Virus record (IMG/VR): IMGVR_UViG_3300010882_000010
Direction: 5' to 3' (one strand)
Source of the DNA: a virus
Taxonomy: Duplodnaviria > Heunggongvirae > Uroviricota > Caudoviricetes
Length of the DNA: 64,000 nucleotides
The notes below the pieces were generated by a model. That model had not been told where the DNA came from. It saw nothing but the letters and a program-made list of their open reading frames with translations, and made no database searches. Numbering within the stretch: position 1 is the stretch's first letter; each line of letters opens with the position of its first letter. Of the stretch, positions 1,515-63,740 are shown piece by piece. Both the position numbers and the translations under genes were made by a program.

Positions 1515-1590
1515 TAATACAAAATTTAAATTTAATAAAGTTCTAAAACTTTTTTCATTATTCGAGTAATAATAATAAATTTAAAACAAA

Positions 1591-4916: not shown

Positions 4917-5192
4917 ATGAGAACAAGTTTTAAGAGAGTTTTAAAAGGAATTAAACATCAATTACCATTGAAAAGATTGTTTAGAAATTTTTTCATAACA
5001 GGTAATGCATGGGGAATGTTTTCTAAAAATTCTCACATAGTAAGTTCTACAGGTAAAGAAAAAGTTGGTTACAATACAAAAGAAAGTGCTAGAAAAGCAG
5101 CAGATTCAATGCAAAGAAAGTATGGCAATTATTATGCAATTTACTATTGCATATTTTGTGGAAAATATCACATCGGTAAAAATTTAAAGTAA
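4917..5192 (+). CDS. Small Cys-containing protein, paralogue 3 of the triplet.
   Basis: C terminus YYAIYYCIFCGKYHIGKN. The alternative upstream ATG at 4875 overlaps the tail of paralogue 2, so the start is ambiguous. Confidence 0.5.
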   Translation: MRTSFKRVLKGIKHQLPLKRLFRNFFITGNAWGMFSKNSHIVSSTGKEKVGYNTKESARKAADSMQRKYGNYYAIYYCIFCGKYHIGKNLK

Positions 5193-5913: not shown

Positions 5914-5930
5914 GGAATAAATAGTAAAAG
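5914..5930 (+). promoter_or_regulatory. Copy 1 of the conserved 17-nt upstream motif GGAATAAATAGTAAAAG.
   Basis: Exact 17-mer, 15 nt upstream of the tnpB GTG start. Confidence 0.5.
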
Positions 5931-13524: not shown

Positions 13525-13541
13525 GGAATAAATAGTAAAAG
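13525..13541 (+). promoter_or_regulatory. Copy 2 of the GGAATAAATAGTAAAAG motif.
   Basis: Exact copy; the ATG at 13581 lies downstream. Confidence 0.5.
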
Positions 13542-13580: not shown

Positions 13581-13832
13581 ATGAACAGTAGAATCCCAAC
13601 TTTTCAAGATTTCATTCTTGAAAGAGAATTTTCAGATGAAGAACGTCAAAAACTTGCAGATGAAGGAAAAGCAATGAAAGATGGTAGTTTTCCAATTGAA
13701 ACAGAACAAGATTTGAAAAATGCAATTAAAGCGCACGGAAGAGCAAGTGATCCAGAAGAAGCTAAGAAGTGGATAATCAAAAGAGCAAAAGAAATGGGAA
13801 AAGCCGATATTCTCCCGGAAGATTGGCAATAA
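13581..13832 (+). CDS. Hypothetical small protein.
   Basis: 83-aa ORF about 40 nt downstream of a GGAATAAATAGTAAAAG motif copy. Confidence 0.5.
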   Translation: MNSRIPTFQDFILEREFSDEERQKLADEGKAMKDGSFPIETEQDLKNAIKAHGRASDPEEAKKWIIKRAKEMGKADILPEDWQ

Positions 13833-20144: not shown

Positions 20145-20161
20145 GGAATAAATAGTAAAAG
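20145..20161 (+). promoter_or_regulatory. Copy 3 of the GGAATAAATAGTAAAAG motif.
   Basis: Exact copy, 12 nt upstream of the ATG at 20174. Confidence 0.5.
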
Positions 20162-37714: not shown

Positions 37715-38473
37715 ATGAGTTTGATTAATGTTCTTAAACGAGCAAAACAATACAGTAATGTTATTGCTGTTGGTGATATTCATGGTCAGACATCTGAGTT
37801 AGGTTACAGGATTAAAAAGCGTTACAATATTGAGAATAGTGTTATTATTCTTTGCGGTGATATTGGAGTTGGTTTTCACAAGTTTAACTACCATAAAGAT
37901 GACTTTGCACGGTTAGATACTATTGCTAAATCTAGCAAAAATTTGATTATTGTAGTACGTGGAAATCATGATGATCCTACTTATTTTGATGGAAGTTTTA
38001 ACATGTTTACCAATATTGCTTTTGTACCAGATTACACAGTAGTAGAGACAAAAAACCAAAGAATACTTTGTGTAGGTGGTGGTGTTTCTATTGATAGGAC
38101 AGATCGAAAATTGGGAAGTTCTTATTGGGGTGATGCGGAGTTACCTGTTTATGATGAAGAGTTGTTAAAATCAGCAGGAGAAATTGATGTAATCTGTGCA
38201 CATGGAGCACCATCTTGGTGTGAACCGAGTAATAAAGATGGAATTGACTATTGGATTTCAAAAGATTCAGAATTAAGCAAGGACATCGACTATGAACGAA
38301 AAGTGATGGATCAGATTTTTAATTACTTAGAGAAAAACACAAAGAGTTTGAATTTTTGGGTTTATGGTCATTATCACATGTCAAAATCTCAAAATTATGA
38401 TGGGATGCGATATCGTGCTATTGATTGTATGGAATTTTTTCCAATTCCAGACCTTGATAGAAAATCGGAATAG
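37715..38473 (+). CDS. Calcineurin-like metallophosphoesterase (Ser/Thr phosphatase / ApaH / RNA-repair phosphoesterase family).
   Basis: IAVGDIHGQ (GDxHG), CGDIGVG (GDxxDRG-like) and VRGNHDD (GNHE/D). Confidence 0.7.
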   Translation: MSLINVLKRAKQYSNVIAVGDIHGQTSELGYRIKKRYNIENSVIILCGDIGVGFHKFNYHKDDFARLDTIAKSSKNLIIVVRGNHDDPTYFDGSFNMFTNIAFVPDYTVVETKNQRILCVGGGVSIDRTDRKLGSSYWGDAELPVYDEELLKSAGEIDVICAHGAPSWCEPSNKDGIDYWISKDSELSKDIDYERKVMDQIFNYLEKNTKSLNFWVYGHYHMSKSQNYDGMRYRAIDCMEFFPIPDLDRKSE

Positions 38474-38484
38474 ATAGTAAAAGG
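38467..38484 (+). promoter_or_regulatory. Copy 4 of the motif (GGAATAGATAGTAAAAGG).
   Basis: One mismatch (A to G); 11 nt upstream of the ATG at 38496. Confidence 0.5.
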
Positions 38485-38495
38485 AATAGTAAGAA

Positions 38496-39491
38496 ATGAC
38501 AGGTCATACAGTTTACCTTAAAGATACAGAAGAAAATCAATCACCTCTTTATACTAAAGAATTTTTTGATTATTCTAAAAACACAAGCGCACAATTTGAA
38601 GCATACATCAGTGGTCAGAATTATTGGAATAAGCCGTTAAGTAGACTTGATATTCATGGAGTTTACTATATTGGAAGTGGTTCACAATATGAAGGACAAT
38701 CTGGGGGTATTTCAGGAATACTTTTAGTGCATCATGAACCCGGGACTGTAAAAGAAGAGTTTGCACCATTAGATATTAAGTTAGACCAATTATTGCAAAC
38801 TGAAATTACTAACTTAGGACAAATTTTAAATGTTAGATTAACTCAAGATTCAGAATGCCCGCCTGTTGATATGAGAGAATTTGGTATTGAAAATTCAGCA
38901 GGAGAAATAGCATCACTTTACATCAACGAGAAAAAACAATTCAGATTTTTTAGTCATCATATTGGAAGACCAATTTTGGATATGGAAGGAGAGCGAGAAG
39001 AAAACAAATGGTTTACAATTACAAGACTTAATCAAAGTGCAACATCTGGATTTGATAGTCGTGAATTAAAATCATCCATGAATCCGATAGCAGATAATGA
39101 TACTAAAAAATATCGGTTGATTTTTTGGGATTTGACAAAGCGTTGTATGCTTTATGTTTACAAAGCACCGGCAAATCTTGGAGATGTAGGCGAGTTCTAT
39201 GAAAATTTGGAATTGATAGCAAAAACTGTAACTAACAAAGGATTTGATTTGGCGGCTGATGTTACTTTGGGATTTGGTACTTACTTTATCAGATTGAGAA
39301 TAATTGAAGATGGTTGTACTAAATTTAATCTTGATTTAAGAGAAATTGGTACTAATAGTGGAGAAATCGGATTTGAGTTTGAAAATCCATTTAGCAATAC
39401 AATAATAATGCCAATTACAGGAGATGGTCCTCCTACAGGAGAAACAGGAACAACAGGTTCTACCGGAAGTACCGGGGTTACAACAAGATAA
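38496..39491 (+). CDS. Probable structural (tail or fibre) protein with a C-terminal collagen-like G-X-T repeat tail.
   Basis: The C terminus is GDGPPTGETGTTGSTGSTGVTT. An immediately upstream GGAATAGATAGTAAAAG copy lies at 38467-38484. Confidence 0.5.
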   Translation: MTGHTVYLKDTEENQSPLYTKEFFDYSKNTSAQFEAYISGQNYWNKPLSRLDIHGVYYIGSGSQYEGQSGGISGILLVHHEPGTVKEEFAPLDIKLDQLLQTEITNLGQILNVRLTQDSECPPVDMREFGIENSAGEIASLYINEKKQFRFFSHHIGRPILDMEGEREENKWFTITRLNQSATSGFDSRELKSSMNPIADNDTKKYRLIFWDLTKRCMLYVYKAPANLGDVGEFYENLELIAKTVTNKGFDLAADVTLGFGTYFIRLRIIEDGCTKFNLDLREIGTNSGEIGFEFENPFSNTIIMPITGDGPPTGETGTTGSTGSTGVTTR

Positions 39492-45392: not shown

Positions 45393-46339
45393 TGAGAATT
45401 TTAGTTTTTGGTTCAACTGGTCAATTGGGACAGTGTTTCAAGGAGATTCACAAGAATTATCCAGAACATGATTTTGTTTTCTTGACAAGACATGAGCTTG
45501 ATTTAATGAAATGTTGTCTTGAAGATAAGACTAGACTTTCAAATTATTTTAGGTTAACACATCCTGATATTGTAATTAATTGTGCTGGTTACACAGATGT
45601 AGAAAAAGCAGAGTATGATACTTTAAATTGTTTTACTTTAAATGCTTTAGTTCCACAGGAAATGGCACTTAGATGTAAAGAGCAAAATATCAAGTTTATC
45701 CATTTTTCAACAGATTACGTTTTTAATGGAACTAAGAAAGGTGAGTATGTTGAAGGAGATGATATTGTGTTTCAAAGAGCAACCAATTTCTATGGTTTTT
45801 CAAAACAATTGGGCGAGCAATACGTACTACATGAAAATCCGGTAGGTTTTATCATTAGAATTTCAGGATTAGTTTCTACTTATGGTAAGAACTTTGTGAA
45901 AACTATGATTAAAAAATTTCAAGATAATGCAAATTTCAAAGATCTTAAAGTAGTTAGAGATCAATGGACTAAGTTAACATCCGGACATGATTTAGCAGAA
46001 TTTGTGATGCACTTGATTAATGACTATGAATGCAAGCCACAATGTATGATTAAAGGTCCTATTCAAGGAATTGACATCTTACACTATGGAAATGCGCCAT
46101 CTAATTCTTGGTATTATTTTGCAAGATTAATTCAAGAAAAGATGATAGAACTTGAAATTCCTAATGAATGCACTTTAATACCGGTTGATACAGATAAAGA
46201 ATCTACAATAGCCAAAAGACCACAAAATTCAGTACTTAATAATCTAAAGACAATAATCCAATACAATGATACTCCGGGATTGATAGATGATACTATTAAA
46301 AGAATTATCCAATCTGAGTTAAAAGAAAATTGTTCGTAA
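45392..46339 (+). CDS. NAD(P)-dependent epimerase/reductase (RmlD-like short-chain Rossmann protein).
   Basis: N-terminal MRILVFGSTGQLGQ glycine-rich dinucleotide-binding motif and ~315 aa length. The last codons and stop (AAT TGT TCG TAA) lie in promoter element copy H. Confidence 0.65.
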   Translation: MRILVFGSTGQLGQCFKEIHKNYPEHDFVFLTRHELDLMKCCLEDKTRLSNYFRLTHPDIVINCAGYTDVEKAEYDTLNCFTLNALVPQEMALRCKEQNIKFIHFSTDYVFNGTKKGEYVEGDDIVFQRATNFYGFSKQLGEQYVLHENPVGFIIRISGLVSTYGKNFVKTMIKKFQDNANFKDLKVVRDQWTKLTSGHDLAEFVMHLINDYECKPQCMIKGPIQGIDILHYGNAPSNSWYYFARLIQEKMIELEIPNECTLIPVDTDKESTIAKRPQNSVLNNLKTIIQYNDTPGLIDDTIKRIIQSELKENCS

Positions 46340-46408
46340 CTTTTGACAAAGAACTAAAGAACGTAAACTAATTTTCACTATTTTTACCAACTTTTAAACA
46401 CTAACACG
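46328..46408 (+). promoter_or_regulatory. Promoter element copy H, a variant (TTGTTCGTAAC) upstream of the sigma-factor gene.
   Basis: aattgttcgtaacttttgacaaag ... cactatttttacc; ATG at 46409. Confidence 0.45.
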
Positions 46409-47116
46409 ATGGCAACGAAAAAAACAAAAGAAGCTAAAGAACAACGAAACACTAAAGATATTCAATTGCTTGCAACTGAATTTATCAATACTAAATCAGA
46501 AGAAGCATACACTCAAATTGTGAAGAGATTAACACCGGGTTTGCACAAGCATATCATGGAAATTGAACCTAACCAAGAAAAAAGAAAAGAAATCATCAAT
46601 GATGTTTTTGTTAAAGTTTGGACAAAAATCCATCAATATAATCCAGAATTTGGTGCTTTTTCAACTTGGATCTACAAAATAGCATACAATGACGTTTTAC
46701 TTTCAAAAAGAAACAGTTTTAGAACAACTTCTATTGATGGTGGAAATGAAGACACAACAAACGTAACTTTATCTCCTCTTAACTCTATTCAATATTCCTA
46801 CAAAATGAATGAGGAGTTTGATACTTACAAAGATAACAATGTTATTGATGAATTGTATGGAATGGTTAAAACAATGATTTTGAATTTTCCAGAATCAGAG
46901 AAGTACAAAAATTGGAAAACAGCTTTCTTGCTTAAAGATATTGAGGGATACCAATTTAATGAAGTTGCTGAATTAATGAATGAAAATGAAAACACAGTAA
47001 AAGGATGGGTTTGTAAAGCTCGTAGACACTTAGCAAAAATGACCAATAAAGAAGATCAAAATTTGGTTGAAGATTACTTTGCTTATCGCTACGAGTATGA
47101 AAACAATCCGTATTAA
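46409..47116 (+). CDS. Sigma-70-family (ECF-like) RNA polymerase sigma factor.
   Basis: Region-2-like FSTWIYKIAYNDVL and a region-4 helix-turn-helix YQFNEVAELMNENENTVKGWVCKARRHLAK. Confidence 0.75.
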   Translation: MATKKTKEAKEQRNTKDIQLLATEFINTKSEEAYTQIVKRLTPGLHKHIMEIEPNQEKRKEIINDVFVKVWTKIHQYNPEFGAFSTWIYKIAYNDVLLSKRNSFRTTSIDGGNEDTTNVTLSPLNSIQYSYKMNEEFDTYKDNNVIDELYGMVKTMILNFPESEKYKNWKTAFLLKDIEGYQFNEVAELMNENENTVKGWVCKARRHLAKMTNKEDQNLVEDYFAYRYEYENNPY

Positions 47117-47131: not shown

Positions 47132-47539
47132 ATGACTACATTTGGACTATATTGGAGAGAGATACTTTATTATTTCTACATCCGAAGAACTATCAAAAAA
47201 GAGAAAAAGAAAGGTGATATATGGAATACTTTGAGATTAAGAGCAGATTGGGTTGGTAGAATCTACACTGTAATTAATCTTAGAAAAGAAGATGTAGGCG
47301 AAGAAGACCTTGTTAAACGTGCAAAAATTGCAGATAAAATTAAGCCAATTAATGATTACCTTGTTTCTCTTGATATGACTGAAATTGTTTTTCCGGCAAT
47401 TCAGCAACTTTCAGATCAATCATTTCTTATTGTTTACTCACCGATTTTTCGGAAGTTCACTTGGATAAGAACAATTTGGTACTTAATTGTATTAGGTGCT
47501 ATTATTACAGGAGCAATTTACGGAATCAAACTACTTTAA
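47132..47539 (+). CDS. Membrane protein.
   Basis: C-terminal TM helix WYLIVLGAIITGAIYGI. Confidence 0.45.
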   Translation: MTTFGLYWREILYYFYIRRTIKKEKKKGDIWNTLRLRADWVGRIYTVINLRKEDVGEEDLVKRAKIADKIKPINDYLVSLDMTEIVFPAIQQLSDQSFLIVYSPIFRKFTWIRTIWYLIVLGAIITGAIYGIKLL

Positions 47540-48538: not shown

Positions 48539-48561
48539 GAAAAAATTAGGCCAAAATTTTT

Positions 48562-48578
48562 GGAATAGATAGTAAAGG
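48562..48578 (+). promoter_or_regulatory. Copy 5 of the motif (GGAATAGATAGTAAAGG).
   Basis: 8 nt upstream of the ATG at 48587. Confidence 0.5.
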
Positions 48579-48586
48579 AAGATATT

Positions 48587-49195
48587 ATGGAAATGTTTAA
48601 AGAATTTTGTGAAAAATCATTATTGGATAATTTTGTTGAAAAATTGTTTGAAATGGAATTTTCATTATTTGTTGATGATTCTAATGATGTTGATATTAAA
48701 GAAATTGATTTAAAATCAGCACTATTAAAAATCAGAGAAATTAAAAACCATACTATTAAAAAGGGTAATTTAGGAGATAGTCTCTACATTAAAGTAAAGA
48801 AAAACAAGAAAATTGTTTTCATAATAAGAATTTCTTATCATAAGCCATTATCAACTTTTGGTATGAAAAAAGGAGAAGAGGATGTTATTAATGTACTTTG
48901 TCTTGATATTTTATCTTGGGCTGATGAAATTAAAGTACACAAAATACGAACAGAAAATTATCCATCTGAATTAAATGATTCTGGATTAAAAGATAAAGAA
49001 GAACACAAAGGGGTAGTTTTTAAAAAAATTAAACCATTTTTTCCAAATTTAAAATTCATGGATTTAGAAGATGATAATTATTCTAAAGTAAAAAATGCTA
49101 TTAAAATGTTTTTACAGGAAAATGGTTTTGAAGTTTTAGAAAACATGAATTTAGAAGAGTACACTTTAGAGTATGAGATTATTAATGAAGATTAA
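48587..49195 (+). CDS. Hypothetical protein.
   Basis: 202-aa ORF 8 nt downstream of GGAATAGATAGTAAAGG (48562-48578). Confidence 0.5.
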   Translation: MEMFKEFCEKSLLDNFVEKLFEMEFSLFVDDSNDVDIKEIDLKSALLKIREIKNHTIKKGNLGDSLYIKVKKNKKIVFIIRISYHKPLSTFGMKKGEEDVINVLCLDILSWADEIKVHKIRTENYPSELNDSGLKDKEEHKGVVFKKIKPFFPNLKFMDLEDDNYSKVKNAIKMFLQENGFEVLENMNLEEYTLEYEIINED

Positions 49196-49219
49196 AACAA
49201 TAAAAAGAAAAACTAAGAG

Positions 49220-50896: not shown

Positions 50897-50915
50897 AAGA
50901 GTTCAAAAATAATCT

Positions 50916-50932
50916 GGAATAAATAGTGAAAG
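50916..50932 (+). promoter_or_regulatory. Copy 6 of the motif (GGAATAAATAGTGAAAG).
   Basis: Upstream of the GIY-YIG endonuclease gene. Confidence 0.45.
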
Positions 50933-50980
50933 ATAACTATTTATGCATGAATAATTATCTTTAAAATTTGTGAAATTTAG

Positions 50981-51433
50981 ATGTACATCTACAAAACTAC
51001 ATGTAAAATTAATGGAATGATTTACGTTGGACAGTCTTCAAAGACACCAAACGAATCAAAGAGATATTTGGGTTCTGGAGCTGGACATTTTAATAATGCA
51101 CTTAAAAAGTATGGAAAAAATGCTTTTGGAAAGGAAATTTTAGAAGATAACATACAGTCTAAAGAAGAACTTAATAATCGAGAAATTTACTGGATTGCTC
51201 ATTACAAAGATTTGTATCCAGAATTGGTTTACAATATTGCAAAGGGTGGACAAGGTGGAAATTTTGGTGAAGATGTTAATAAGAAGATTTCTAAAGCATT
51301 AAAAGGAAAAAAGCATACACCTGAACATATTGCTAAAACTCGAGTAGAATTTACAGAAGAAGTAAGAAAAAAATTGAGCAAAGCTCAACTTGAAAGATTT
51401 GAAAAAAAAATCCAACATCAACCAAAACAATAG
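50981..51433 (+). CDS. GIY-YIG homing endonuclease (I-TevI-like), catalytic domain plus a first NUMOD3-like repeat.
   Basis: MYIYKTTCKINGMIYVGQS...YLGSG...REIYWIAHY (GIY...YVG...E) and ISKALKGKKHTPEHIAKT (NUMOD3-like). The frame ends just after an A9 run at 51402-51410. Confidence 0.75.
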   Translation: MYIYKTTCKINGMIYVGQSSKTPNESKRYLGSGAGHFNNALKKYGKNAFGKEILEDNIQSKEELNNREIYWIAHYKDLYPELVYNIAKGGQGGNFGEDVNKKISKALKGKKHTPEHIAKTRVEFTEEVRKKLSKAQLERFEKKIQHQPKQ

Positions 51434-51498
51434 AAAAATGGATTAAATCAAGAAAAGAAAATGGTTGGTATAAAGAGCCAGAAACAACTAAGCAAAAA

Positions 51499-54284: not shown

Positions 54285-54300
54285 GGAATAGATAGTAAAG
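54285..54300 (+). promoter_or_regulatory. Copy 7 of the motif (GGAATAGATAGTAAAG).
   Basis: Upstream of the small lipoprotein ORF at 54330. Confidence 0.45.
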
Positions 54301-54329
54301 AAAAGAGATTAAAAAATTAAAACAATAAC

Positions 54330-54500
54330 ATGAAAAAATTAGTAGGACTATTACTTAGTATTATCTTAGTAGCAACAGCTTGTTCATACGGGCATAAAGT
54401 AAACAATGAAACAATTGAAATTGATTCTTTGGAATTTGTTGTAGATACAGTAAATTATGATATAGATACAACTTTTGTAGAAATTGATACTTTAAACTAA
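54330..54500 (+). CDS. Small putative lipoprotein (56 aa).
   Basis: MKKLVGLLLSIILVATACSYGH... is a signal peptide plus Cys. Preceded by GGAATAGATAGTAAAG at 54285-54300. Below the ORF-track cutoff. Confidence 0.35.
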   Translation: MKKLVGLLLSIILVATACSYGHKVNNETIEIDSLEFVVDTVNYDIDTTFVEIDTLN

Positions 54501-54691
54501 AACTTTTTATAACTCGCGCATAATAATTAAAACAATAAAATTACAATAATGAAACTTCAAGCAATTAATTTTAGAAAGAATTGGGAAAACATAGTGGATT
54601 TTATCATTGAGAGAATGGATGATAAAGTTGATTGTGATATGGGTTTTTATTGTAGTAGATGAAGTAAGTGAGATAATTAAGAAACAATGAA

Positions 54692-54866: not shown

Positions 54867-54941
54867 CCGTTTTCGTGGTGTAATGGCGTGCATAACTCCC
54901 TGTCACGGAGTAGGTCGGAGTTCGAACCTCCCGGGGACGGC
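54867..54941 (+). tRNA. Putative tRNA-Asp (anticodon GTC); weak acceptor and D stems.
   Basis: Anticodon arm actcc-CTGTCAC-ggagt and T arm ggag-ttcgaac-ctcc. The acceptor ccgtttt/gggacgg needs 3 G-U pairs. Confidence 0.4.
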
Positions 54942-54965
54942 AAAACAAAAAGAGCAAAAAACTAA

Positions 54966-55030
54966 AATTGTTAGTAACTTTTTCCAACTATTAGAAGTTG
55001 GTATTGAAATTTTTAGTATTTTTGTACTGT
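54966..55030 (+). promoter_or_regulatory. Promoter element copy G, upstream of the main tRNA array.
   Basis: aattgttagtaactttttcc ... tagtatttttgtac (55017-55024). Confidence 0.5.
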
Positions 55031-55145
55031 TCTTTGACATCTTGAATGAAAAAGTAAAGTAAAAAAGCAGATTCACTTTACTACCATGAACGAGGGATCC
55101 TATGGGTAAACTCTTAAAATGGAATTGTAATGGATTTGCTATTAT

Positions 55146-55218
55146 GCTCCTGTCATCTAAGGGTTTAGGATAAGTGATTTTCGATCACTAAATCGGGGTT
55201 CGAATCCCCGTGGGAGTA
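55146..55218 (+). tRNA. tRNA-Glu (anticodon TTC).
   Basis: Acceptor gctcctg/tgggagt, D stem atct/ggat, anticodon arm agtga-TTTTCGA-tcact, T arm cgggg-ttcgaat-ccccg. No encoded CCA. Confidence 0.7.
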
Positions 55219-55624
55219 CAAAGTTGTTAAAAGACGTTTTAATAACCTGGAGAGTTCGAAATCTCCGATCGAGCATAGTTTAGAGGGAACAGCCTGTCTG
55301 TGTAGGTCTAATTGACCGATAAGACGGGCGGGTGTAAGGTTCGAATCCTTATGGTTTGGCAGAATTTTGATTTGAAATTATCATTAGAGGTGTTAGTCCA
55401 TGTAGATTAACACCTCAGTGGTTAGGAAATCAAAGAAAAAACAACAACAGAATACTAAACATTGCGATGAGGGTCTGCAATATGGTACTAGTAAAACATC
55501 TCCCAAGGTGAATTAGAGGCGGGTTCCGCGGCATGTTAAACCTTAAAACATTGAAGTTTGGTAATTCTGTTTTTTTAATTAGGTACAATAGTTAAAATGA
55601 AAAGGCAATAAGCCCAATAAAAAT

Positions 55625-55644
55625 AGAGATACATAGTAAAAAGA
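55625..55644 (+). promoter_or_regulatory. Copy 8 of the motif, degenerate (GAGATACATAGTAAAAAG).
   Basis: Upstream of the ATG at 55653 (Vsr-like endonuclease). Confidence 0.35.
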
Positions 55645-55652
55645 AGATTACT

Positions 55653-56471
55653 ATGCCTCGAAAAATTATTGATACTTTAAGAAATTGTGAAAATTGTGAA
55701 ATTGAATTTTTTGGACATACAAGGTTTTGTTCATTAAGTTGTAAAGGAAAGTATCTTGCCAAACGTTCATTAGAAGTACGAAAAGAATTGGGTGTATCTA
55801 TCGGAGCTAAAGTAGGTAGAAAAAACAAGAATGCACTTGGAAATTGGAAATGTGAAATTTGTGAAGAAGTTTTTAGAACAAGAAGAGAATTACAAGATCA
55901 TAAAAAAGTTCATGGAACAAGCATAGAACGAAACAAAGAAAAATTAAAAAAGGAGTACACTTGTCAATATTGTGGTAGATTGAAAATAACTACAAAAGAA
56001 GGTGCAACTAATCACGAAAGAGTTTGTAAAGAAAATCCTAATAGACAAAAAACATCACAAGAAGGAAAATCATTAACAGTAGAACACAAACAAAATGTTT
56101 CTAGAGGAATGAAAAAAGCACACGAAGAAGGACGAGCTTGGAATATTGGAAAAAGTAGATGGAATAATGAACCTTCTTATCCTGAAAAATGGTTTATGCA
56201 AGTAATAGAAAATGAGTTTAATGATAAATTGTATGAAAGAGAGTATTCTTGTAGTATTTACTCAATTGATTTTGCATGGGTGCATAAAATGAAAGGTATT
56301 GAAATTGATGGTTCACAACATCAAAGATTTAAAGAATATCAAGAAAGAGATGAGAGAAAAATGAAAAAGTGTACTGAATTTGGATGGAAAATTTTAAGAA
56401 TATCGTGGAAAGAATGTTTTAATAATCCAAAACAATGGATTAAAATAGCAAAAGAATTCATTGAAAATTAA
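55653..56471 (+). CDS. Homing endonuclease-like protein: C2H2/zinc-ribbon motifs, a NUMOD3-like segment, and a C-terminal DUF559/Vsr-like PD-(D/E)xK domain.
   Basis: CENCEIEF..CSLSC; CEICEEVFRTRRELQDHKKVH; NUMOD3-like LTVEHKQNVSRGMKKAHEEGR; C-terminal YSIDFAWVHKMKGIEIDGSQHQ...ERDERKMKKCTEFGWKILRISWKE. Inserted inside the tRNA array. Confidence 0.65.
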   Translation: MPRKIIDTLRNCENCEIEFFGHTRFCSLSCKGKYLAKRSLEVRKELGVSIGAKVGRKNKNALGNWKCEICEEVFRTRRELQDHKKVHGTSIERNKEKLKKEYTCQYCGRLKITTKEGATNHERVCKENPNRQKTSQEGKSLTVEHKQNVSRGMKKAHEEGRAWNIGKSRWNNEPSYPEKWFMQVIENEFNDKLYEREYSCSIYSIDFAWVHKMKGIEIDGSQHQRFKEYQERDERKMKKCTEFGWKILRISWKECFNNPKQWIKIAKEFIEN

Positions 56472-56472
56472 A

Positions 56473-56544
56473 GGGCTGGTAGCTCCAATGTAGAGCGGAA
56501 TCCTGTTAAGATTATGGTTGGTGGTTCAAGTCCACCCCAGCCCG
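56473..56544 (+). tRNA. tRNA-Asn (anticodon GTT).
   Basis: Acceptor gggctgg/ccagccc (perfect), D arm gctc-caatgta-gagc, anticodon arm gaatc-CTGTTAA-gatta, T arm ggtgg-ttcaagt-ccacc. Starts 2 nt after the upstream stop codon. Confidence 0.85.
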
Positions 56545-56745
56545 CAAAAAAATCAACAAACTGGATCCGACGTAATACAGAAGAAAAAACGGGGAAACAG
56601 AATTGCAATTAGATTGCTAATTTTGCTAATCATTTAGCTCATCCACAGTAGTCAGTTTGTTTTTAAAGAAATAGTGCGGGATAGACTGGAGGTGGTTCCA
56701 GCTCGGTCTCAATAAAGTATCCAACTTACTGTTAATTAGTTGGTT

Positions 56746-56791
56746 ACCGGAAAATAGTTGGAATATTAGGGTTCGAATCCTTATTCCGGTA
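56746..56791 (+). ncRNA. tRNA-like minihelix (acceptor stem plus T arm only).
   Basis: accggaa-aatagttggaatat-taggg/ttcgaat/cctta-ttccggt-a, with a perfect 7-bp acceptor-like stem. Confidence 0.4.
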
Positions 56792-56843
56792 CTAAGCCGA
56801 ACTACGTGGGTTCGACTCCCACTCCCGCTACAAAGTTTGATAC

Positions 56844-56897
56844 TTTTGATTTTTTGGGAAAAATCCGGATAGGTGAGTTCGAATCTCACATCAAAAG
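56844..56897 (+). ncRNA. tRNA-like minihelix (acceptor stem plus T arm only).
   Basis: ttttgat-tttttgggaaaaatccggatag-gtgag/ttcgaat/ctcac-atcaaaa-g, with a perfect 7-bp stem. Confidence 0.4.
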
Positions 56898-57119
56898 TAA
56901 AGAACCTAAAAGATAGGTTGTTAAGTGACTGAGCCTGAACGTATTCACTCTATGTACTCGGCTTTAACATGAAAGTAAAGGAAATTCCTGGGTGAACTAG
57001 CAGGTGGTAAAACTAGAACGAAGTAAGATGCTCTGTTTGAAGAATGAAACATCATCTGGCAACGGGGTTGTGTAGCCAAAGTTGACAACCAAGATCAACA
57101 CTTACTATCTTTTTCTCAT

Positions 57120-57192
57120 AGTGCTGAGGTCAAACGGTTAAGATGTCGCCCTGTCACGGCGTACGGAGCGGGTTCAACTCCCGTCAGCACTG
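57120..57192 (+). tRNA. tRNA-Asp (anticodon GTC).
   Basis: Acceptor agtgctg/cagcact (perfect), anticodon arm cgcc-CTGTCAC-ggcg, T arm gcggg-ttcaact-cccgt. Confidence 0.7.
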
Positions 57193-57600
57193 CATAATTA
57201 TCTAAAAAGATGCGGATTGAGTACTTTTGGTGAAACATGTGGAGAAACCAAAAGGATTAGCAAATTCAAGAAGGTGTTTTTAGGATTATGGCTTATTTGG
57301 ACTGCTATTCAAGTAGGTTGCAATAATTTCTAACTATTGGTGTAATTAGGTAACACGCTCTTCGAGGAGGAGGGAATTGAGAGTTCGAGTCTTTCATAGT
57401 AAGAAAGGTTTGCGTAGGTATTGCATAGCATTAAGGTTTAATGTGCTGGGAGGAAATCCCGGAGAATGGGTTCGAATCTCAACAATATCACAAAATGGCG
57501 AAGTACGCCCGTAATTGGTACACGGGGTCAATCTGAAAATTAAAAGATTGAATACTGCAAAGATTTCATTGTAAGTTCGATTCTTTCCTTCGCCGCAAAT

Positions 57601-57730
57601 TAGGGTGTAGCTCAGTGGTTAGAGCGCGTAAAATTCAACAACTAAAATCTGATAGTCAAAGGTTTTATGCAGCAAAAAATTAGAAATTGCATTCAGGAGC
57701 ACGATGTCGGTGGTTCGAATCCATCCACCC
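57601..57730 (+). tRNA. tRNA-like gene with a ~55-60 nt insertion in the anticodon region (candidate intron-containing or otherwise atypical tRNA).
   Basis: Canonical 5' half tagggtg-ta-gctc-agtggtta-gagc-g and 3' end ggtgg-ttcgaat-ccatc-cacccta (perfect 7-bp acceptor), but about 83 nt lie between the D stem and the T stem where about 22 are expected. Confidence 0.4.
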
Positions 57731-57817
57731 TAACTTTTTAAGTGCTTGTAGCAAAACGGCTTCGCCGCTGGCTTTTAACCAGCAGAAGGAGGTTCGACTC
57801 CTCCCAGGCACACTTAG

Positions 57818-57890
57818 GCTCTTATGGCGCAATTGGTAGCGCTGCTGGTTCTTACCCAGTAGGTTGGTGGTTCGAATCCATCTAGGAGTA
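57818..57890 (+). tRNA. tRNA-Lys (anticodon CTT).
   Basis: Acceptor gctctta/taggagt, D arm gcgc-aattggta-gcgc, anticodon arm gctgg-TTCTTAC-ccagt, T arm ggtgg-ttcgaat-ccatc. Confidence 0.7.
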
Positions 57891-58080
57891 CACAAAGGTT
57901 TCTTACAGCAACTTTTAGGACTCAACTTTTAATTGAACATTCTGAATGAAACCTGAAATTTTACATCCACAGTTTAATGGTTAAATACCTGAGATGCATG
58001 TCATGAAACTTGGGAGTTTGTCAGTTCGAGTCTGACTGGATGTGCTAAAAATCTTAACAAAATGGAAAACTTTAAGTAAT

Positions 58081-58156
58081 GGCCGAGTAGCTGCAATTGG
58101 TACAGCGCGGGTGTGAAGTACCCGGACTCTTGTAGGTTCGACTCCTACCTTGGCCA
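58081..58156 (+). tRNA. tRNA-Phe (anticodon GAA).
   Basis: Acceptor ggccgag/cttggcc, D arm gctg-caattggta-cagc, anticodon arm cgggt-GTGAAGT-acccg, T arm gtagg-ttcgact-cctac. Confidence 0.8.
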
Positions 58157-58165
58157 CAAAATCAT

Positions 58166-58241
58166 TGACCTCTAGCGAAATTGGTTTAATGCAGCGCGCT
58201 CATAACGCGAAGATGTACAGGTTCGAGTCCTGTGGGGTCAA
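58166..58241 (+). tRNA. tRNA with anticodon CAT (Met, initiator, or a lysidine-Ile tRNA).
   Basis: Acceptor tgacctc/ggggtca, anticodon arm gcgc-CTCATAA-gcgc, T arm acagg-ttcgagt-cctgt. Confidence 0.65.
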
Positions 58242-58247
58242 CAATAT

Positions 58248-58318
58248 TGGAGATTGTTGTAACAGTAGCGATTTGGTTTTACATACCAACAGAGGCGGGG
58301 CAGCACCGTCATCTCCAA
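58248..58318 (+). tRNA. tRNA-Val (anticodon TAC).
   Basis: Acceptor tggagat/atctcca (perfect), anticodon arm ttggt-TTTACAT-accaa, and a non-canonical T loop (ggcgg-ggcagca-ccgtc). Confidence 0.6.
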
Positions 58319-58327
58319 CAAACTTAT

Positions 58328-58399
58328 TGCCTGCTAGCTCAGAAGTAGAGCAATCGGCTGATATCCGATAGGTGCGAGGAGCATTACCTCGGCAGGCAA
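58328..58399 (+). tRNA. tRNA-Ile (anticodon GAT).
   Basis: Acceptor tgcctgc/gcaggca (perfect), D arm gctc-agaagta-gagc, anticodon arm atcgg-CTGATAT-ccgat, T arm cgagg-agcatta-cctcg (non-canonical loop). Confidence 0.7.
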
Positions 58400-58508
58400 C
58401 TAATCATAAAACACTTATGGATGCAATTCTTATCTATTGTTATCGTGGTAAGTTGCAGAATTTTTAAGTCGACTATGGAATTTTAAGTGCCCTTTGATGA
58501 TTCTTTAT

Positions 58509-58578
58509 TGCAATGTAGATAATGATAGTCATACGGTTTCATGAACCGGAAGTCTTGGTTTGAATCCAAGCATTGCAA
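58509..58578 (+). tRNA. Second tRNA with anticodon CAT (Met, fMet or Ile2); degenerate D arm.
   Basis: Acceptor tgcaatg/cattgca (perfect), anticodon arm cggt-TTCATGA-accg, T arm cttgg-tttgaat-ccaag. Confidence 0.5.
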
Positions 58579-58585
58579 CAATTAA

Positions 58586-58658
58586 GCCTCTGTAGTTCAA
58601 TTGGATAGAACAAGAGATTTCTAATCTCTAAATCGGGAATCATGCTCCTGTGGAGGTA
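58586..58658 (+). tRNA. tRNA-Arg (anticodon TCT).
   Basis: Acceptor gcctctg/tggaggt (3 G-U pairs), D arm gttc-aattggata-gaac, anticodon arm agaga-TTTCTAA-tctct, T arm cggga-atcatgc-tcctg. Confidence 0.65.
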
Positions 58659-58686
58659 CTAAATTTTAGTTTTCAAAAAATTACTT

Positions 58687-58706: not shown

Positions 58707-59207
58707 TTGCCTATGGTAAGAAAATCTAATCAGGAAATAGTGGACCTAGCGGCACAACTCGCAAAAGAAATTCATGGTTCACAAGCTGATAAACAAGGTG
58801 TTAACTATTTTCAAGGTCATTTGACAGAAGTAGCAAGTCATTGTCGAGAATGGAAAGAAAAAATCATTGCATATTTGCATGATGTTAGTAAGTTCACAGA
58901 CATTTCAGAGTCTGAATTGGTAATGATTTTGCAAGATCGTTCAAATGGTAGATTAACAGACAAAATTGCAATAAAATTAAAGAAAGCACTTTGGCTTTTA
59001 GATCCAAAGAATTCAAAAACAAGAGAAGATTACATCGAGGGGATTAAAACTAATTATCTTGCAACAAAAGTAAAATTATGGGATTTGCAAGATAACATGA
59101 ACCTTGTTAAGATGAAAAATCCAAAACAGAAAGATTTTTTGAGAATACAAAAATACTATAAAGAGTATGCTAATTTGATTAATCTTTCTCATTACAAAGT
59201 ATTATAA
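58707..59207 (+). CDS. HD-domain phosphohydrolase-like protein.
   Basis: H ... HD arrangement: IHGSQADKQGVNYFQGHLTEVASH...IIAYLHDVSK. Preceded by a degenerate GGAATAGATAGAGAAAAC motif (58687-58703). Confidence 0.55.
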   Translation: MPMVRKSNQEIVDLAAQLAKEIHGSQADKQGVNYFQGHLTEVASHCREWKEKIIAYLHDVSKFTDISESELVMILQDRSNGRLTDKIAIKLKKALWLLDPKNSKTREDYIEGIKTNYLATKVKLWDLQDNMNLVKMKNPKQKDFLRIQKYYKEYANLINLSHYKVL

Positions 59208-59343
59208 TACAGGTCTTACCCAATGGATAGGGGGAATCGGTTACAACCCGATTAAAAATGTGCATTCGAATCGTCAAAGACCTGCTATTAAAAAAATCAA
59301 TAAAACTAAAACTTTTTTCATTCAAGGTATAATAATATTAAAT

Positions 59344-59473
59344 TGAAGGGTGGTGGAATTGGTATGCACCGGAGTCGAAAGGTTTTCTGAGATAAAAGAA
59401 AGTATGTAGTAATTATCGAATGGTAAAACCGGCGCTTAAAAAGCAATTGTAGGTTCAAGTCCTACCTCTTCAA
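59344..59473 (+). tRNA. tRNA-like gene with intact acceptor, D and T arms but a ~55 nt expanded central region.
   Basis: Acceptor tgaaggg/ctcttca, D arm ggtg-(g)aattggtatg-cacc, T arm gtagg-ttcaagt-cctac; total 130 nt. Confidence 0.35.
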
Positions 59474-60142
59474 CAAAATTAAAGGTTCCATACGGCAACT
59501 AATTCCAATTTGACTGTTACTCAAACTCCAACGGAACCTGAAGAAATCGCGACGGAAAAATGTGAAGTAAAAGGAGTCTCAAAAACCGTAATGGATATGA
59601 GATAGAGGTATGTGGTAGACCATTAATTGTAGGAAACTAGAATTAAAAAGTAATGAAAATTACAATCATAATAAGCAATTTTTCAAACAGTTACTTTAGT
59701 TGGTTCAAATCCAACACCGTCGCCAAAATACGTGATTATCCCGGTTCCCTTCGAGTTGAAAAATTCTAGAACACCGCGCTTAGGATAATCCTTTTTTACT
59801 GAATGGAATGTTAGTTTGGAAGCAGCTATTCATCTAAGGGGTGCGTAACAGCTCACCATTCAGAAGTCTCTAACAACCTCCATATGAATCAAGCCAGATT
59901 TTGTTCATTGTTAGAGTAAAAGCAAGAGTATGGATAGACAGAAATTGCAGGTGCAAAGTTGTGAGTAGTGGCGAGCGAAAACAGAGTGTCAGACATCAAG
60001 AACTTGAAAAGAACTGGCTGCGACAATCAAGTTCTTAATAATAGAGAGTGTTTAGAAATAGGCACTCTTTTTTCATTTTAACAGATTTTTAGCAAAACTT
60101 TTCCTAATTTTTGAGTTTAATTAAAAGCAAAAATTAAAATTA

Positions 60143-60159
60143 AGAATAGATAGTAAAAG
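60143..60159 (+). promoter_or_regulatory. Copy 10 of the motif (AGAATAGATAGTAAAAG).
   Basis: 8 nt upstream of the second TnpB-like gene (ATG at 60168). Confidence 0.45.
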
Positions 60160-60167
60160 TAATTAAC

Positions 60168-61406
60168 ATGATTTTATCAGAACAACACATCATTAAAAAA
60201 TCAAATCCTCTTTATCAAGAGTTAGATATGTTGTGTTTTTTATCTAAAAATCTCTACAATTTAGCTCTTTATTCTGTACGCCAACACTATTTTGAAACAG
60301 GAAAGTTTTTGGGAAAATTTGAGTTAATTAAGAACTTCACAAAGGAGAAACAGAAAGATTTTAAAAAATTAACGCATAGAGTAGCACAACAAATTATTTT
60401 TCAAGTAGAACAAGATATGCGTTCATTTTTTGCTCTTTTAAAGTTAAAACAAAAAGGACAATATCAAGGTAAAGTTAAATTACCTAAGTACAAAGAAAAA
60501 CAAGGTAGGAATGTAGCAATTTTTGAGATAATGGGTATTTCAGGAAAAGAATTAAAGAAAGGAATTATCAAATTTGGTGGAATGGAAATTAACAAAAAGT
60601 TTGTTCCGTTGGTTAAAAGAACCATCAAAACCAAACAATCTAAAGTTCAACAAGTTAGAATAATCCCTAAAAACGGATACTATACTGTAGAAGTGCTTTA
60701 CAAAGTAGAATCAAAACAAAAGAAAGAAGATAATCAAAAGTACTTATCAATTGATTTGGGCATAAACAACTTAGCAACTTTAACTTCTAATGTAACTAAA
60801 CCTATCATAGTAAACGGGAAACCTGTAAAGAGTATTAACCAATTTTACAATAAAACTAAAGCAAAACTCTCTTCACAATTAGAAACAGTAAACAAAACTA
60901 AATCATCAAAAAGAACTCAATCTTTATCCTTAAAGAGAAACAACAAAATTAAAGATTACTTTCACAAGACATCTAGATTCATAGTGAATCACGCAATTTC
61001 TAATGACCTTAATACCATAATTATCGGTAAAAATCAAGGCTGGAAACAAGACACAAATCTAGGTAGAGTTAATAATCAAAAGTTTGTTTCAATTCCGTTT
61101 AACAATTTAATTCAAATGATAAGCTACAAAGCTGAATTACAAGGAATTAAAGTTATTGTAAGAGAAGAAAGTTACACAAGCCAAGCAAGTTTCTTAGATA
61201 ATGATTTCATACCAAAGTATGGGGATAAGGAAATTAAGGAATTTAGCGGGAAAAGGATTAAGAGAGGTCTCTACCAGACTAAAAATGGTAGATTAATTAA
61301 TGCTGATGTTAACGGAAGTTTAAACATCATGAAAAAAGAAGTTCCAAATGCCTTAAATGGATATGGAATAGAGGTGTGCAGCACGCCATTAGTTGTAGGA
61401 TTCTAG
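60168..61406 (+). CDS. TnpB-like RuvC nuclease (IS200/IS605 OrfB family) with no zinc-finger cysteines.
   Basis: RuvC-I YLSIDLGINNLATL, RuvC-II VIVREESYTSQ, RuvC-III ADVNGSLNIMKK. There is no CxxC pair between the RuvC-II and RuvC-III motifs. Preceded by AGAATAGATAGTAAAAG (60143-60159). Confidence 0.75.
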   Translation: MILSEQHIIKKSNPLYQELDMLCFLSKNLYNLALYSVRQHYFETGKFLGKFELIKNFTKEKQKDFKKLTHRVAQQIIFQVEQDMRSFFALLKLKQKGQYQGKVKLPKYKEKQGRNVAIFEIMGISGKELKKGIIKFGGMEINKKFVPLVKRTIKTKQSKVQQVRIIPKNGYYTVEVLYKVESKQKKEDNQKYLSIDLGINNLATLTSNVTKPIIVNGKPVKSINQFYNKTKAKLSSQLETVNKTKSSKRTQSLSLKRNNKIKDYFHKTSRFIVNHAISNDLNTIIIGKNQGWKQDTNLGRVNNQKFVSIPFNNLIQMISYKAELQGIKVIVREESYTSQASFLDNDFIPKYGDKEIKEFSGKRIKRGLYQTKNGRLINADVNGSLNIMKKEVPNALNGYGIEVCSTPLVVGF

Positions 61407-61480
61407 AACTAAGAAAATTTCAGAAAATTAAAACTTTTTGAAAGTTAGTTGTAATAATAGCAATTAAAATTACTAAGAAG

Positions 61481-61815: not shown

Positions 61816-62112
61816 ATGAGCACATCAGAAATTAAAGCATGTCCAAGAACAATAGAGGAAATTTTTCCATTGACTATTGTAATGATGAGATATGGTGGTA
61901 AAATTGTGATTTGCAATACAATAGCTGATAATTCAACAATTCAGGATTTGCAAGAAAGTGAAGAGCCGATGTATGATATTGATGGGTACATAACAAAATG
62001 GAGTTGTTTTGACTATGGATATGGTGATACAATATGGCAAGCTTTTGAAGATTACCAAAAGAGAATTTTAGGAGAATGGCAAGTTCCTGGATTATCAAAA
62101 AGAAAAGACTAA
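61816..62112 (+). CDS. Hypothetical protein.
   Basis: 98-aa ORF. Confidence 0.45.
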   Translation: MSTSEIKACPRTIEEIFPLTIVMMRYGGKIVICNTIADNSTIQDLQESEEPMYDIDGYITKWSCFDYGYGDTIWQAFEDYQKRILGEWQVPGLSKRKD

Positions 62113-62129
62113 AAAGACTAAGAATACTA

Positions 62130-63740
62130 ATGAAACAATACCTTGAATTATGCAAAGAGATAATCCAAGATGGAGAATTAAAAACGCCGGCGAGAAAAAA
62201 CATGCCAGCAACCATAGAACTTTTTAAGAGAGATTTGAGTTTTGATCTCAGAGAAGGTTTTCCGTTATTAACAACAAAAAAAGTTAACTTAAAGAACATC
62301 ATTACTGAATTATTTTGGTTTTTGAATGGTGAGAGTGATGTTAGATTTCTCACCAAACGAGGTTGTAATATCTGGAATGAGGATACTTTCAAGTTTGTTA
62401 AAGCGCAATATGAAAAAGAAAGTGAACCGGTTTTTAAATCACTGGGATTTGATGTGAAATTTCCAACCTATGAAGAGTGGATTAAGATTGGTAAAGGTGA
62501 GATGGAATGGCAATTTACACCAAATGCAGAAGCACCTATTAACAGGTATTTTGAAGGCGGCGAAGTGTATGGAAGACACTGGAGAAACTTTAACAATTTG
62601 ATACTTAATGATATACCTGTAATTAAGGATGGCGCTGATAGAGGATTTACCGATTTAATAATGAACGGAACAGATCAATTTTTGGCTTTAATTAATGGAA
62701 TTTTAACTAATCCCGATTCTCGTTATCATATTGTGAGTGCCTGGAATCCAACTGTTTTAGAAAAGAAAATGGCATGTTTACCAAGTTGTCATATCCTCTA
62801 TCAGTGTTCAATTTCAAAATCACGTTATCTTGATCTTTACATCTATCAAAGGAGTTGTGATTTTCCATTGGGTGTACCATATGATATCGCAAGTTATGCT
62901 ACTTTAATGCACATCATTTGCTATTTGACCGGATATGAACCTGGAATGTTACATTGGACGGGTGGAAGTTGTCATCTTTATGAAAATCAAATTACTACAA
63001 TGAGAGAACAGGTAGAGAGAAATCCAAAAGTACTACCAAAACTAAAGTGTGAATTAAAAGATGTTTTAGAACCAAACACAGAAGGAAGTGAATTAGGTCT
63101 TAAAATTTCTAGGCATATTAATGATAGTACACCATACACCAAAGAAGAACTTGCTGAGATTTTTGTTCCTGAAAGTTGGATTATTGAACTTGAAAATTAT
63201 GATAGTTATCCTGTGATAAATTATCCATTCTCTTCAGGCAAGGACAGATTTTGTAATGTTGCAGCAATAATTACCGTGCAAAATGGTGAAGAATTTACCT
63301 ACAAGCAAAATGTTGAAGAGTGGATGGTACATAATCCGAGAATGTTCAAGAATTTTGCAAAGAATGGAGTTGTTGTAACAGATGAAAATGGAAGAGCTTT
63401 GCTAAGTTCAAGATTAGGAATTGAAAATTGTTACACTTTGATGGAAGGAGACGATCCTAAAGAATTTTTAGAAGAGTTAAGAAAAACACAAGATCAAGTA
63501 GTTTACCTTTTTGGAAACTGGTCTTTGTATGAAAAGTTTTTGAAAGCAAGTTTGGTAGATGTAATTTACGGAACTTTTTGGTGTCAAGCATACGATTATT
63601 CAGATAAGAAATCTGTTAATGTTGATTGGGTAATGGATGATTTTGAAAGTGTATGGAGTTCTAATATCGAAGAAAACGGAAGGAAAAGTTATCAGTACAT
63701 TTGGCACAATAAAGAGTTCATTAAAAAATATCGAAAGTAA
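62130..63740 (+). CDS. Thymidylate-synthase-family enzyme, probably a dCMP hydroxymethylase or methylase (Asp at the ThyA Asn177 position), fused to a ~230 aa C-terminal domain.
   Basis: MKQYLELCKEI...GFPLLTTKKVNLKNIITELFWFLNG; catalytic Cys in LPSCHILYQ; RSCDFPLGVPYDIASYATLMHII, where ThyA has ...PFNIASY. The C-terminal half has a DHFR-like ...VVYLFGNWSLYEKFL segment. Confidence 0.75.
   Translation: MKQYLELCKEIIQDGELKTPARKNMPATIELFKRDLSFDLREGFPLLTTKKVNLKNIITELFWFLNGESDVRFLTKRGCNIWNEDTFKFVKAQYEKESEPVFKSLGFDVKFPTYEEWIKIGKGEMEWQFTPNAEAPINRYFEGGEVYGRHWRNFNNLILNDIPVIKDGADRGFTDLIMNGTDQFLALINGILTNPDSRYHIVSAWNPTVLEKKMACLPSCHILYQCSISKSRYLDLYIYQRSCDFPLGVPYDIASYATLMHIICYLTGYEPGMLHWTGGSCHLYENQITTMREQVERNPKVLPKLKCELKDVLEPNTEGSELGLKISRHINDSTPYTKEELAEIFVPESWIIELENYDSYPVINYPFSSGKDRFCNVAAIITVQNGEEFTYKQNVEEWMVHNPRMFKNFAKNGVVVTDENGRALLSSRLGIENCYTLMEGDDPKEFLEELRKTQDQVVYLFGNWSLYEKFLKASLVDVIYGTFWCQAYDYSDKKSVNVDWVMDDFESVWSSNIEENGRKSYQYIWHNKEFIKKYRK

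Follow-up and report, generated by a model that had tools for sequence, protein, structure and literature searches.

A 17-nt intergenic motif as a candidate extended T4-type late promoter in a jumbo phage that also encodes an extracytoplasmic function-type sigma factor

The late promoter system of phage T4 relies on the sigma factor gp55 acting together with gp33 and the gp45 sliding clamp. Promoters of the group 4, or extracytoplasmic function (ECF), sigma factors, such as RpoE and SigW, combine a -35 element of the 'GGAAC/AAC' type with a -10 element of the 'CGT/TC' type across a spacer of 16-17 nt, and anti-sigma genes usually sit just after the sigma gene. The housekeeping promoters of Bacteroidota are built from a -33 TTTG and a -7 TAnnTTTG box. 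The T4 late promoter itself consists of TATAAATA at positions -13 to -6, which is read by gp55 and whose first T is variable in T4 relatives (PMC1524935). In the jumbo-phage group considered here, two sigma types plus gp33 have been described (Iyer et al. 2021, PMC7824862). The present work concerns a stretch of 64,000 nt from one such phage (IMG/VR record IMGVR_UViG_3300010882_000010), hereafter the window, whose positions are used throughout, and two of its features: a 17-nt motif, GGAATARATAGTAAAAG, that stands before ten genes, and an ECF-type sigma factor gene at 46409-47116.

A preliminary description of this DNA had assigned the motif to the ECF-type sigma as its cognate site. Against this assignment stand the single conserved block of the motif, its T4-late core and its presence in a phage in which no ECF-like sigma was detected in about 100 kb of sequence, and the preliminary description was probably wrong on which sigma reads the motif. 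It appears probable, if narrowly so, that a gp55-type sigma reads the 17-mer and that the motif is an extended form of the T4-type late promoter, specific to this lineage. The broader proposal, that the motif is a phage-specific, non-host, promoter-like signal marking a separate transcription class, is supported, and the motif does not match TAnnTTTG.

Placement and architecture of the 17-nt motif

The window has a G+C content of 31.5% and holds about 104 plausible genes, all on the plus strand, with an intergenic share of 13.9%. The sequence GGAATARATAGTAAAAG is found in it eight times with at most two mismatches, always on the plus strand, where 0.15 matches are expected, and none of 100 shuffles reached eight. 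A ninth intergenic copy differs at three positions, and a tenth, before a Vsr-like gene, is the variant GAGATACATAGTAAAAAG (Table 1). The original count of ten exact or near-exact copies holds for the first eight, the remaining two being the weaker copy at 58687 and the variant at 55626. All ten copies lie on the gene strand, between genes and upstream of a start codon, as first described, at distances that extend to 48 nt and not to 40 nt only. A scan of the window with a 19-nt position weight matrix returned nine matches of at least 21 bits, all intergenic, and the minus strand gave no match that reaches 14 bits. Only two matches of at least 14 bits fall within coding sequence (15899 and 39209); the first of them is possibly an internal promoter.

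Nine copies were aligned together with their flanks, 40 nt on the upstream and 25 nt on the downstream side. The information in the alignment is confined to one contiguous block, (T/C)T-GGAATARATAGTAAAAG, accompanied by a weak A-tract at -10 to -4, and no second conserved block or -35 element appears in the aligned span. The AAAAT..TT reported upstream of the motif corresponds to an A-rich/T context that is real but weakly conserved. Within the 17-mer, positions 3-10 form a core, AATA(A/G)ATA (AATAAATA or AATAGATA), and TAnnTTTG is absent from all ten copies, as had been noted.

This anatomy was compared with several promoter types. An ECF promoter would show two blocks, a -35 with AAC and a -10, about 16-17 nt apart, and the 17-mer does not have them. 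Taking GGAATA as an ECF -35 was rejected, as it would put the -10, 16-17 nt further on, at or beyond the ATG of the genes behind the 48562 and 60143 copies. A sigma-54 reading with -24 and -12 elements was rejected by eye, GG and GC being out of register, and promoters of the E. coli sigma-70 type are not enriched in the window (64 found versus 73 expected).

The genes behind the motif that belong to a detectable family are the two TnpB genes (5946 and 60168), the GIY-YIG (50981) and DUF559/Vsr-like (55653) endonuclease genes and the HD phosphohydrolase gene (58713), in agreement with the preliminary description. The remaining ones have no match in PHROGs, in the phage collection or among PDB sequences, and none is recognisably structural, although a structural gene had been proposed among them.

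Table 1. Motif copies, promoter modules and genes discussed in the text (positions in the window; distances are from motif end to start codon).
Feature	Position	Strand	Details
Motif copy, exact	5914..5930	+	15 nt before TnpB gene 5946-7301
Motif copy, exact	13525..13541	+	39 nt before ORF 13581-13832; gene run onward to 20137
Motif copy, exact	20145..20161	+	12 nt before ORF 20174-20917; five-gene run to 26925, no detectable homologues
Motif copy, exact	38467..38483	+	overlaps stop codon of ORF 37715-38473; 12 nt before ORF 38496-39491
Motif copy, 1 mismatch	48562..48578	+	8 nt before ORF 48587-49195 (202 aa)
Motif copy, 1 mismatch	50916..50932	+	48 nt before GIY-YIG homing endonuclease 50981-51433
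Motif copy, 2 mismatches	54285..54301	+	28 nt before 56-aa ORF 54330-54500; upstream of tRNA array
Variant copy GAGATACATAGTAAAAAG (PTm1-like ATACATAGTAAAA)	55626..55643	+	9 nt before Vsr/DUF559-like endonuclease 55653-56471
Weaker motif copy, 3 mismatches, 21.3 bits	58687..58703	+	9 nt before HD phosphohydrolase gene 58713-59207
Motif copy, 1 mismatch	60143..60159	+	8 nt before second TnpB 60168-61406; preceded by terminator-like hairpin 60043-60070
Intragenic near-copy, 19.7 bits	15899..15915	+	90 nt before ORF 16006-17244
ECF-type sigma factor gene	46409..47116	+	235 aa; sigma-2 ~38-97, sigma-4.2 ~170-208; Pfam, TIGR02937, PDB
Host-type (class A) promoter module before sigma gene	46329..46386	+	ATTGTTCGTAAC 46329-46340; -7-box-like TATTTTTA 46379-46386
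Conserved small ORF right after sigma gene	47132..47539	+	135 aa; hydrophobic C-terminal segment; 58-61% identical in tblastx
Class A modules	9421, 26962, 28691, 35524, 39528, 46329, 54743, 54967		each ~60-75 nt; before many genes including the sigma gene
Class C two-block motif AAAACTTTTT-N12-WAATAAT	1545..1573, 54499-54527, 59308-59336, 61430-61458	+	all intergenic
ORF, open reading frame.

The motif in other phages and its possible readers

An exact-match scan of IMG/VR found the 17-mer to be recurrent in one contig only, IMGVR 3300010167_000014 (Ga0123354_10000014), referred to here as phage G, of whose 146.5-kb contig about 100 kb of non-overlapping sequence were examined. This sequence holds 13 matches with at most three mismatches, the same AAAATAATCT flank included, and the sites include a tandem pair before the sheath gene, one before a baseplate/sheath-stabiliser-like gene and others before further large genes. 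Phage G is T4-like, with homologues of gp46/47, UvsX, gp41, gp4 and gp2, and it encodes a gp55-like late sigma of 128 aa (phrog_234, E 2e-10) that matches annotated cyanophage gp55 in tblastn. Its sheath and tube proteins are 63% and 71% identical to those of a relative of the window phage (L019), so that it can be placed in the lineage of the window's relatives. The search for an ECF-like sigma was negative in the roughly 100 kb examined, at the syntenic position and in a pattern scan of IMG/VR. None of ten database-wide homologues of the window sigma lies on a contig of phage G's size (146 or 181 kb), and the two small-contig ones that were checked come from other samples. Phage G is thus likely to lack an ECF-like sigma. 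Two adjacent small ORFs of the window, 4518-4736 (72 aa) and 4917-5192 (91 aa), both match a single phage G ORF (L216), with 47% and 42% identity, and they are among the very few proteins common to the two phages in the compared regions.

Tenacibaculum phage PTm1 is not a close relative, as 3 of 104 window proteins matched it. Its complete genome (224,680 bp) encodes a gp55-like protein (hidden Markov model (HMM) E-value 1.4e-15) and lacks an ECF-like sigma. Its plus strand has 80 copies of ATACATA, 46 of these in the intergenic 11% of the genome, and its minus strand 28, while the extended form ATACATA-N2-5-AAA[AG]G, derived in this analysis, is intergenic in 10 of 10 cases. Motifs of the ATACATA type precede several genes, among them those for head completion, sheath, portal and major capsid protein, and one copy, ATACATAGTAAAA, has a register identical to that of the window motif. 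We know of no published description of this late-gene motif in PTm1.

A core of this type also recurs in the lineage of the window phage. Of 54 distinct sheath-tube spacers, 49 carry ATA[AT]ATA no more than 60 nt from the tube ATG, as opposed to 3.3% of random windows, in forms that include GATATATA, GATAAATA, TATAAATA and GAATAAATAGAAG. The motifs of relatives, GAATATATAAA.. (containing TATAAATA), have the core in common with the 17-mer but not the flanks; upstream of genes, the 17-mer itself is found with at most two mismatches in none of the 48 sigma-bearing IMG/VR loci. In L019, a TATAAA-type motif, AGAATATATAAAC, follows the PD-(D/E)XK gene at the site orthologous to 48562. Phage G, L056, PTm1 and other relatives have a gp55 gene. 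Both sigma types, gp55-like and ECF-like, are encoded together by four IMG/VR contigs, 15 Lak megaphages, LR756500 and LR756504, which agrees with the two sigma types described by Iyer et al. (2021). A further gp55-like gene, in ENA contigs with P0133 (L358-L361) that belong to an unrelated T4-like phage, has a translation that differs from the query protein, which may reflect a different start or genetic code.

Altogether, these comparisons point to a model in which the 17-mer would be a single -10-region block whose core is equivalent to T4 TATAAATA at -13 to -6, with no -35 element. Host core RNA polymerase carrying a small gp55-type late sigma, which the window phage presumably encodes, would read it, with gp33 and the sliding clamp as probable co-factors. 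If the geometry is that of T4, transcripts would begin near motif position 16-17 (the A/G of ...AAAAG) and have leaders of about 10-50 nt. The motif would then give late-type expression to free-standing mobile genes (the two TnpB genes, the GIY-YIG and the Vsr-like genes), to inserted genes and to a few operons. The ECF-type sigma would be a second phage sigma, itself transcribed from a host-type promoter.

Several observations weigh against this model. No gp55-like ORF is found in the window and the 10 kb flanking it on each side, i.e., in 80 kb of a 219-kb genome, and an HMM built from 120 homologues finds gp55 neither in the window, nor in L073/L075, nor in any other locus except L003 and L056. 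A PHROGs screen of 30 additional small window ORFs revealed no gp33-like protein. The best 120 of 357 matches in a gp55 profile search include none on the contigs of the window phage, which is weak evidence given the limited sensitivity of the search, and the phage G gp55 used alone as query gave five candidates, again none of them on these contigs. The single candidate on a long contig comes from another phage, whose genes lie on both strands. In the window, no gene behind the motif is a recognisable structural gene, and the motif is absent between the large structural-looking genes that lie just before the window. The late timing of the 17-mer is proposed by analogy.

It is unlikely that the ECF-type sigma reads the 17-mer as a -10-only sigma and thereby drives a middle/late class. 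The sigma is real and lies behind a host-type, i.e., early, promoter, as expected for a factor that activates a later class. In 29 related loci, which carry ATAAATA-type motifs as well, its family occupies a syntenic position a few kb behind the tail-tube gene, and the failure to find gp55 in the 80 kb searched fits the same view. However, a single-block motif suits poorly a sigma with a conserved sigma-4.2 helix, and GGAATA as a -35 fails on spacing. In L019, L023 and L025, the recognition helices of the ECF sigma are invariant with respect to those of the window, yet the flanks of the motif differ. The motif is identical in phage G, where no ECF-like sigma was detected in about 100 kb, and its type is present in PTm1, which has none. 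The co-occurrence of motif and sigma across genomes that is expected of an ECF promoter is not observed in the 48 sigma-bearing loci and the phage G sequence examined, and the sigma gene itself has no 17-mer in front of it.

A host factor, either an alternative sigma or a DNA-binding protein, is a very unlikely reader. According to this explanation, two dissimilar phages would share the motif through a shared host. Indeed, phage G and the window phage have three intergenic motif classes (A, B and C) in common, with at least 18 copies of class A in phage G, and almost no proteins in the compared regions, which is the pattern expected from a common host apparatus. However, when 185,579 species-representative genomes (GTDB) were scanned for an exact 18-mer, they gave only 86 scattered single matches in unrelated phyla, with no cluster in any genome. 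The explanation is also at odds with the identity of the core, which is that of the T4 late element, and with PTm1, which infects another host genus and carries the same motif type before its late genes.

A role at the RNA level, in which the motif would be a 5'-leader element involved in processing, stability or the start of translation, is at most as probable as a host factor. The constant proximity to a start codon (8-48 nt) and the purine- and A-rich composition, reminiscent of Bacteroidota leaders and with a 3' end that is sometimes AAGGA-like, would suit such a role. They are set against a six-fold variation in the distance to the start codon, an absence of self-complementarity, Rfam matches in the window that are limited to tRNAs, the tandem pair before the phage G sheath gene and a core homologous to a known DNA promoter element. 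In addition, a terminator-like hairpin precedes the copy at 60143, and this arrangement suggests that transcription starts anew behind it.

The motif as part of a mobile element, i.e., an IS200/605 end or a homing-endonuclease target spreading with its element, is extremely improbable: 5 of 10 copies precede TnpB, GIY-YIG or Vsr-like genes and two motif-plus-gene units are insertions, yet the two TnpB genes are only 27.5% identical with upstream regions alike only in the motif, other copies precede non-mobile genes, the 48562 copy occupies an ancestral promoter position and the phage G copies precede tail genes. The two units are recognised as insertions because L019 and L023 lack both the 202-aa gene and the GIY-YIG cassette. 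The first (48539-49219) placed a 202-aa orphan gene (48587) behind a pre-existing promoter, and the second (50897-51498) comprises the cassette promoter, the GIY-YIG gene and a 72-aa ORF. Homing-endonuclease genes of T4 carry or borrow phage promoters, and it is more likely that the mobile genes of the window do the same than that they brought the motif as an element end.

The ECF-type sigma gene, other promoter classes and surrounding genes

The assignment of sigma-70 regions 2 and 4 to ORF 46409-47116, made in the preliminary description, is confirmed by Pfam Sigma70_r2 (PF04542; E 7.7e-9, 35.7 bits, cut-off 24) and Sigma70_r4_2 (PF08281; E 8.5e-8, 32.2 bits, cut-off 25.7). The protein also matches phrog_1740 ('RNA polymerase sigma factor') and exceeds the cut-off of the NCBIfam model TIGR02937 for sigma70-ECF (53.6 bits, cut-off 42.9), and it reaches no equivalog model. 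Its closest solved structures are those of the ECF sigmas SigH, RpoE and SigW. From these TIGR02937 and PDB matches, the protein has an overall ECF profile without regions 1.1 or 3. By sequence, it is a genuine ECF-type (group 4) phage sigma factor. Its region 4.2 helix, NTVKGWVCKARR, is unchanged in nine homologues, and this strict conservation implies that the ECF-type sigma does use a -35 element. The family is represented in at least 48 IMG/VR phage loci, in 29 loci the sigma gene lies 4.5-9 kb downstream of a homologous tail-tube gene, and the homologues in L019, L023 and L025 are 46-57% identical to the window protein.

The class A module in front of the sigma gene implies that the gene is read by the host RNA polymerase, i.e., early, and the ECF-type sigma is probably an early product. 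Since its presumed target, the 17-mer, is absent from this position, there is no sign of autoregulation. The small ORF behind it (47132-47539) is syntenic in every close relative, at the position where an anti-sigma gene would be, and the order of sigma gene, small ORF and PD-(D/E)XK nuclease gene is conserved in L019, L023 and L565. The small ORF has no match in Pfam, NCBIfam or any anti-sigma family; its product is possibly a sigma partner or an anti-sigma factor. We regard as doubtful the further proposal that the sigma and the membrane-type product form a sigma/anti-sigma switch with its own promoter class, either the 17-mer (read as a -10-only, T4-late-like element) or AAAACTTTTT-N12-WAATAAT. 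If such a switch were to exist, the uncultivated T4-like phages of Bacteroidota, a large lineage, would possess one more temporal tier next to the gp55 late system, possibly gated by a signal.

A second promoter class and a candidate third one are present in the window (Table 1). The separate class with a Bacteroidota TAnnTTTG box that had been described is real. This class A has the form ATTGTTAGTAAC(TTTTT)-N~25-35-TATTTTTG/A, in which TAnnTTTG is the -7 box, and ATTGTTAGTAAC(TTTTT) is often the 3' arm of a terminator hairpin. The ATTGTTAGTAAC element is conserved about 50 nt upstream of the -7 box and could be a regulator site or an UP-like element. Class C is a two-block motif with four exact copies, where 0.07 are expected. 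Similar sites precede the guanylate-kinase gene in L019 and L023 and are found in phage G. On the basis of its sequence, class C is a candidate third promoter class, whose architecture (AAC -35-like and -10 blocks) fits an ECF-type promoter better than that of the 17-mer does. Further class C sites of the window lie at 44280 and 10247, and some copies are palindromic (AAACTTTTTGAAAGTTT).

The window represents about 64 kb of a jumbo phage, since a protein identical to the sigma ORF is found on contigs of up to 219,030 bp, and it has no close relative in the GenBank phage collection. Its recognisable genes are mainly early, metabolic or accessory and include those for RNase H, dihydrofolate reductase (DHFR), thymidylate synthase, tRNA nucleotidyltransferase, an RmlD-like reductase and a PD-(D/E)XK nuclease. 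The thymidylate synthase ORF (62076-63740) encodes 536-554 aa, about twice the usual length, and matches its PHROG with residues 16-395 against a profile of 335 positions, which suggests an insertion or added domain. The two TnpB genes are of the OrfB_IS605 / Cas12f-like TNB type; no TnpA was recognised among the window ORFs screened, and one assembly (L076) ends within the second TnpB gene.

An array of 11-13 tRNAs occupies 54868-58659 (11 predicted by ARAGORN and 11 by Rfam, in partly different sets); the Rfam matches include 57120-57192 and a long one at 57601-57733. The array is split by the Vsr/DUF559-like endonuclease gene, which has a 53%-identical homologue on a metagenomic contig (L175). 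Between the HD gene and the second TnpB gene, about 960 nt (59208-60167) contain no ORF of at least 50 aa. This stretch has a class C motif (59308) near its start and the terminator-like hairpin near its end, has no Rfam match and could encode a non-coding RNA.

Comparison with described promoter systems

If the T4-type reading holds, the 17-mer would be a largely ordinary T4-like late promoter of the TATAAATA type, unusually long (17 nt) and unusually well conserved. It would serve as a marker of late or phage-specific transcription units in jumbo phages of Bacteroidota, a large lineage that is uncultivated, and would show how homing endonucleases and TnpB genes gain expression signals. The ECF-type sigma keeps its place, a few kb behind the tail-tube gene, in dozens of phages; it occurs alongside gp55 and always has a small membrane-type ORF after it. 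Its regulon would show whether these phages run an extra, possibly signal-gated, transcription tier.

The Bacteroidota housekeeping promoter is a separate class in the window, where it stands before many genes including the sigma gene, and it differs from the 17-mer in that neither TAnnTTTG nor TTTG occurs in any of the ten copies. The sigma gene resembles bacterial ECF systems in its two-domain sigma-2/sigma-4 architecture and in the small membrane-type ORF that follows. The resemblance ends with the motif, which lacks a two-block structure, with the region in front of the sigma gene, which lacks the presumed target, and with the downstream ORF, which matches no anti-sigma family.

The late-gene motif of PTm1 is closer. 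It agrees with the window motif in register (ATACATAGTAAAA versus ATAAATAGTAAAA), in an A-rich tail ending in G and in a position 20-45 nt before start codons, and the window variant at 55626 is of the PTm1 type. It differs in a central C in place of A/G, in the lack of the GG prefix, in a variable spacing to the AAAAG tail and in the absence of an ECF-like sigma from the phage.

With respect to T4 itself, conservation of the window motif spans 17-19 nt, with GG upstream, GTAAAAG downstream and a central R; the hosts are Bacteroidota-like, and the gp55-type proteins of the lineage have only 115-128 aa. In the window, the genes behind the motif are accessory and mobile ones, and the search of the window and its 10-kb flanks revealed no gp55 gene. 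Nevertheless, as in T4, the motif is a single -10-region block without a -35, located directly before genes on the coding strand, and in related phages it lies upstream of sheath, tube and baseplate genes. Its core, AATAAATA or AATAGATA, is identical to TATAAATA of the T4 late promoter in 7 or 6 of the 8 nt.

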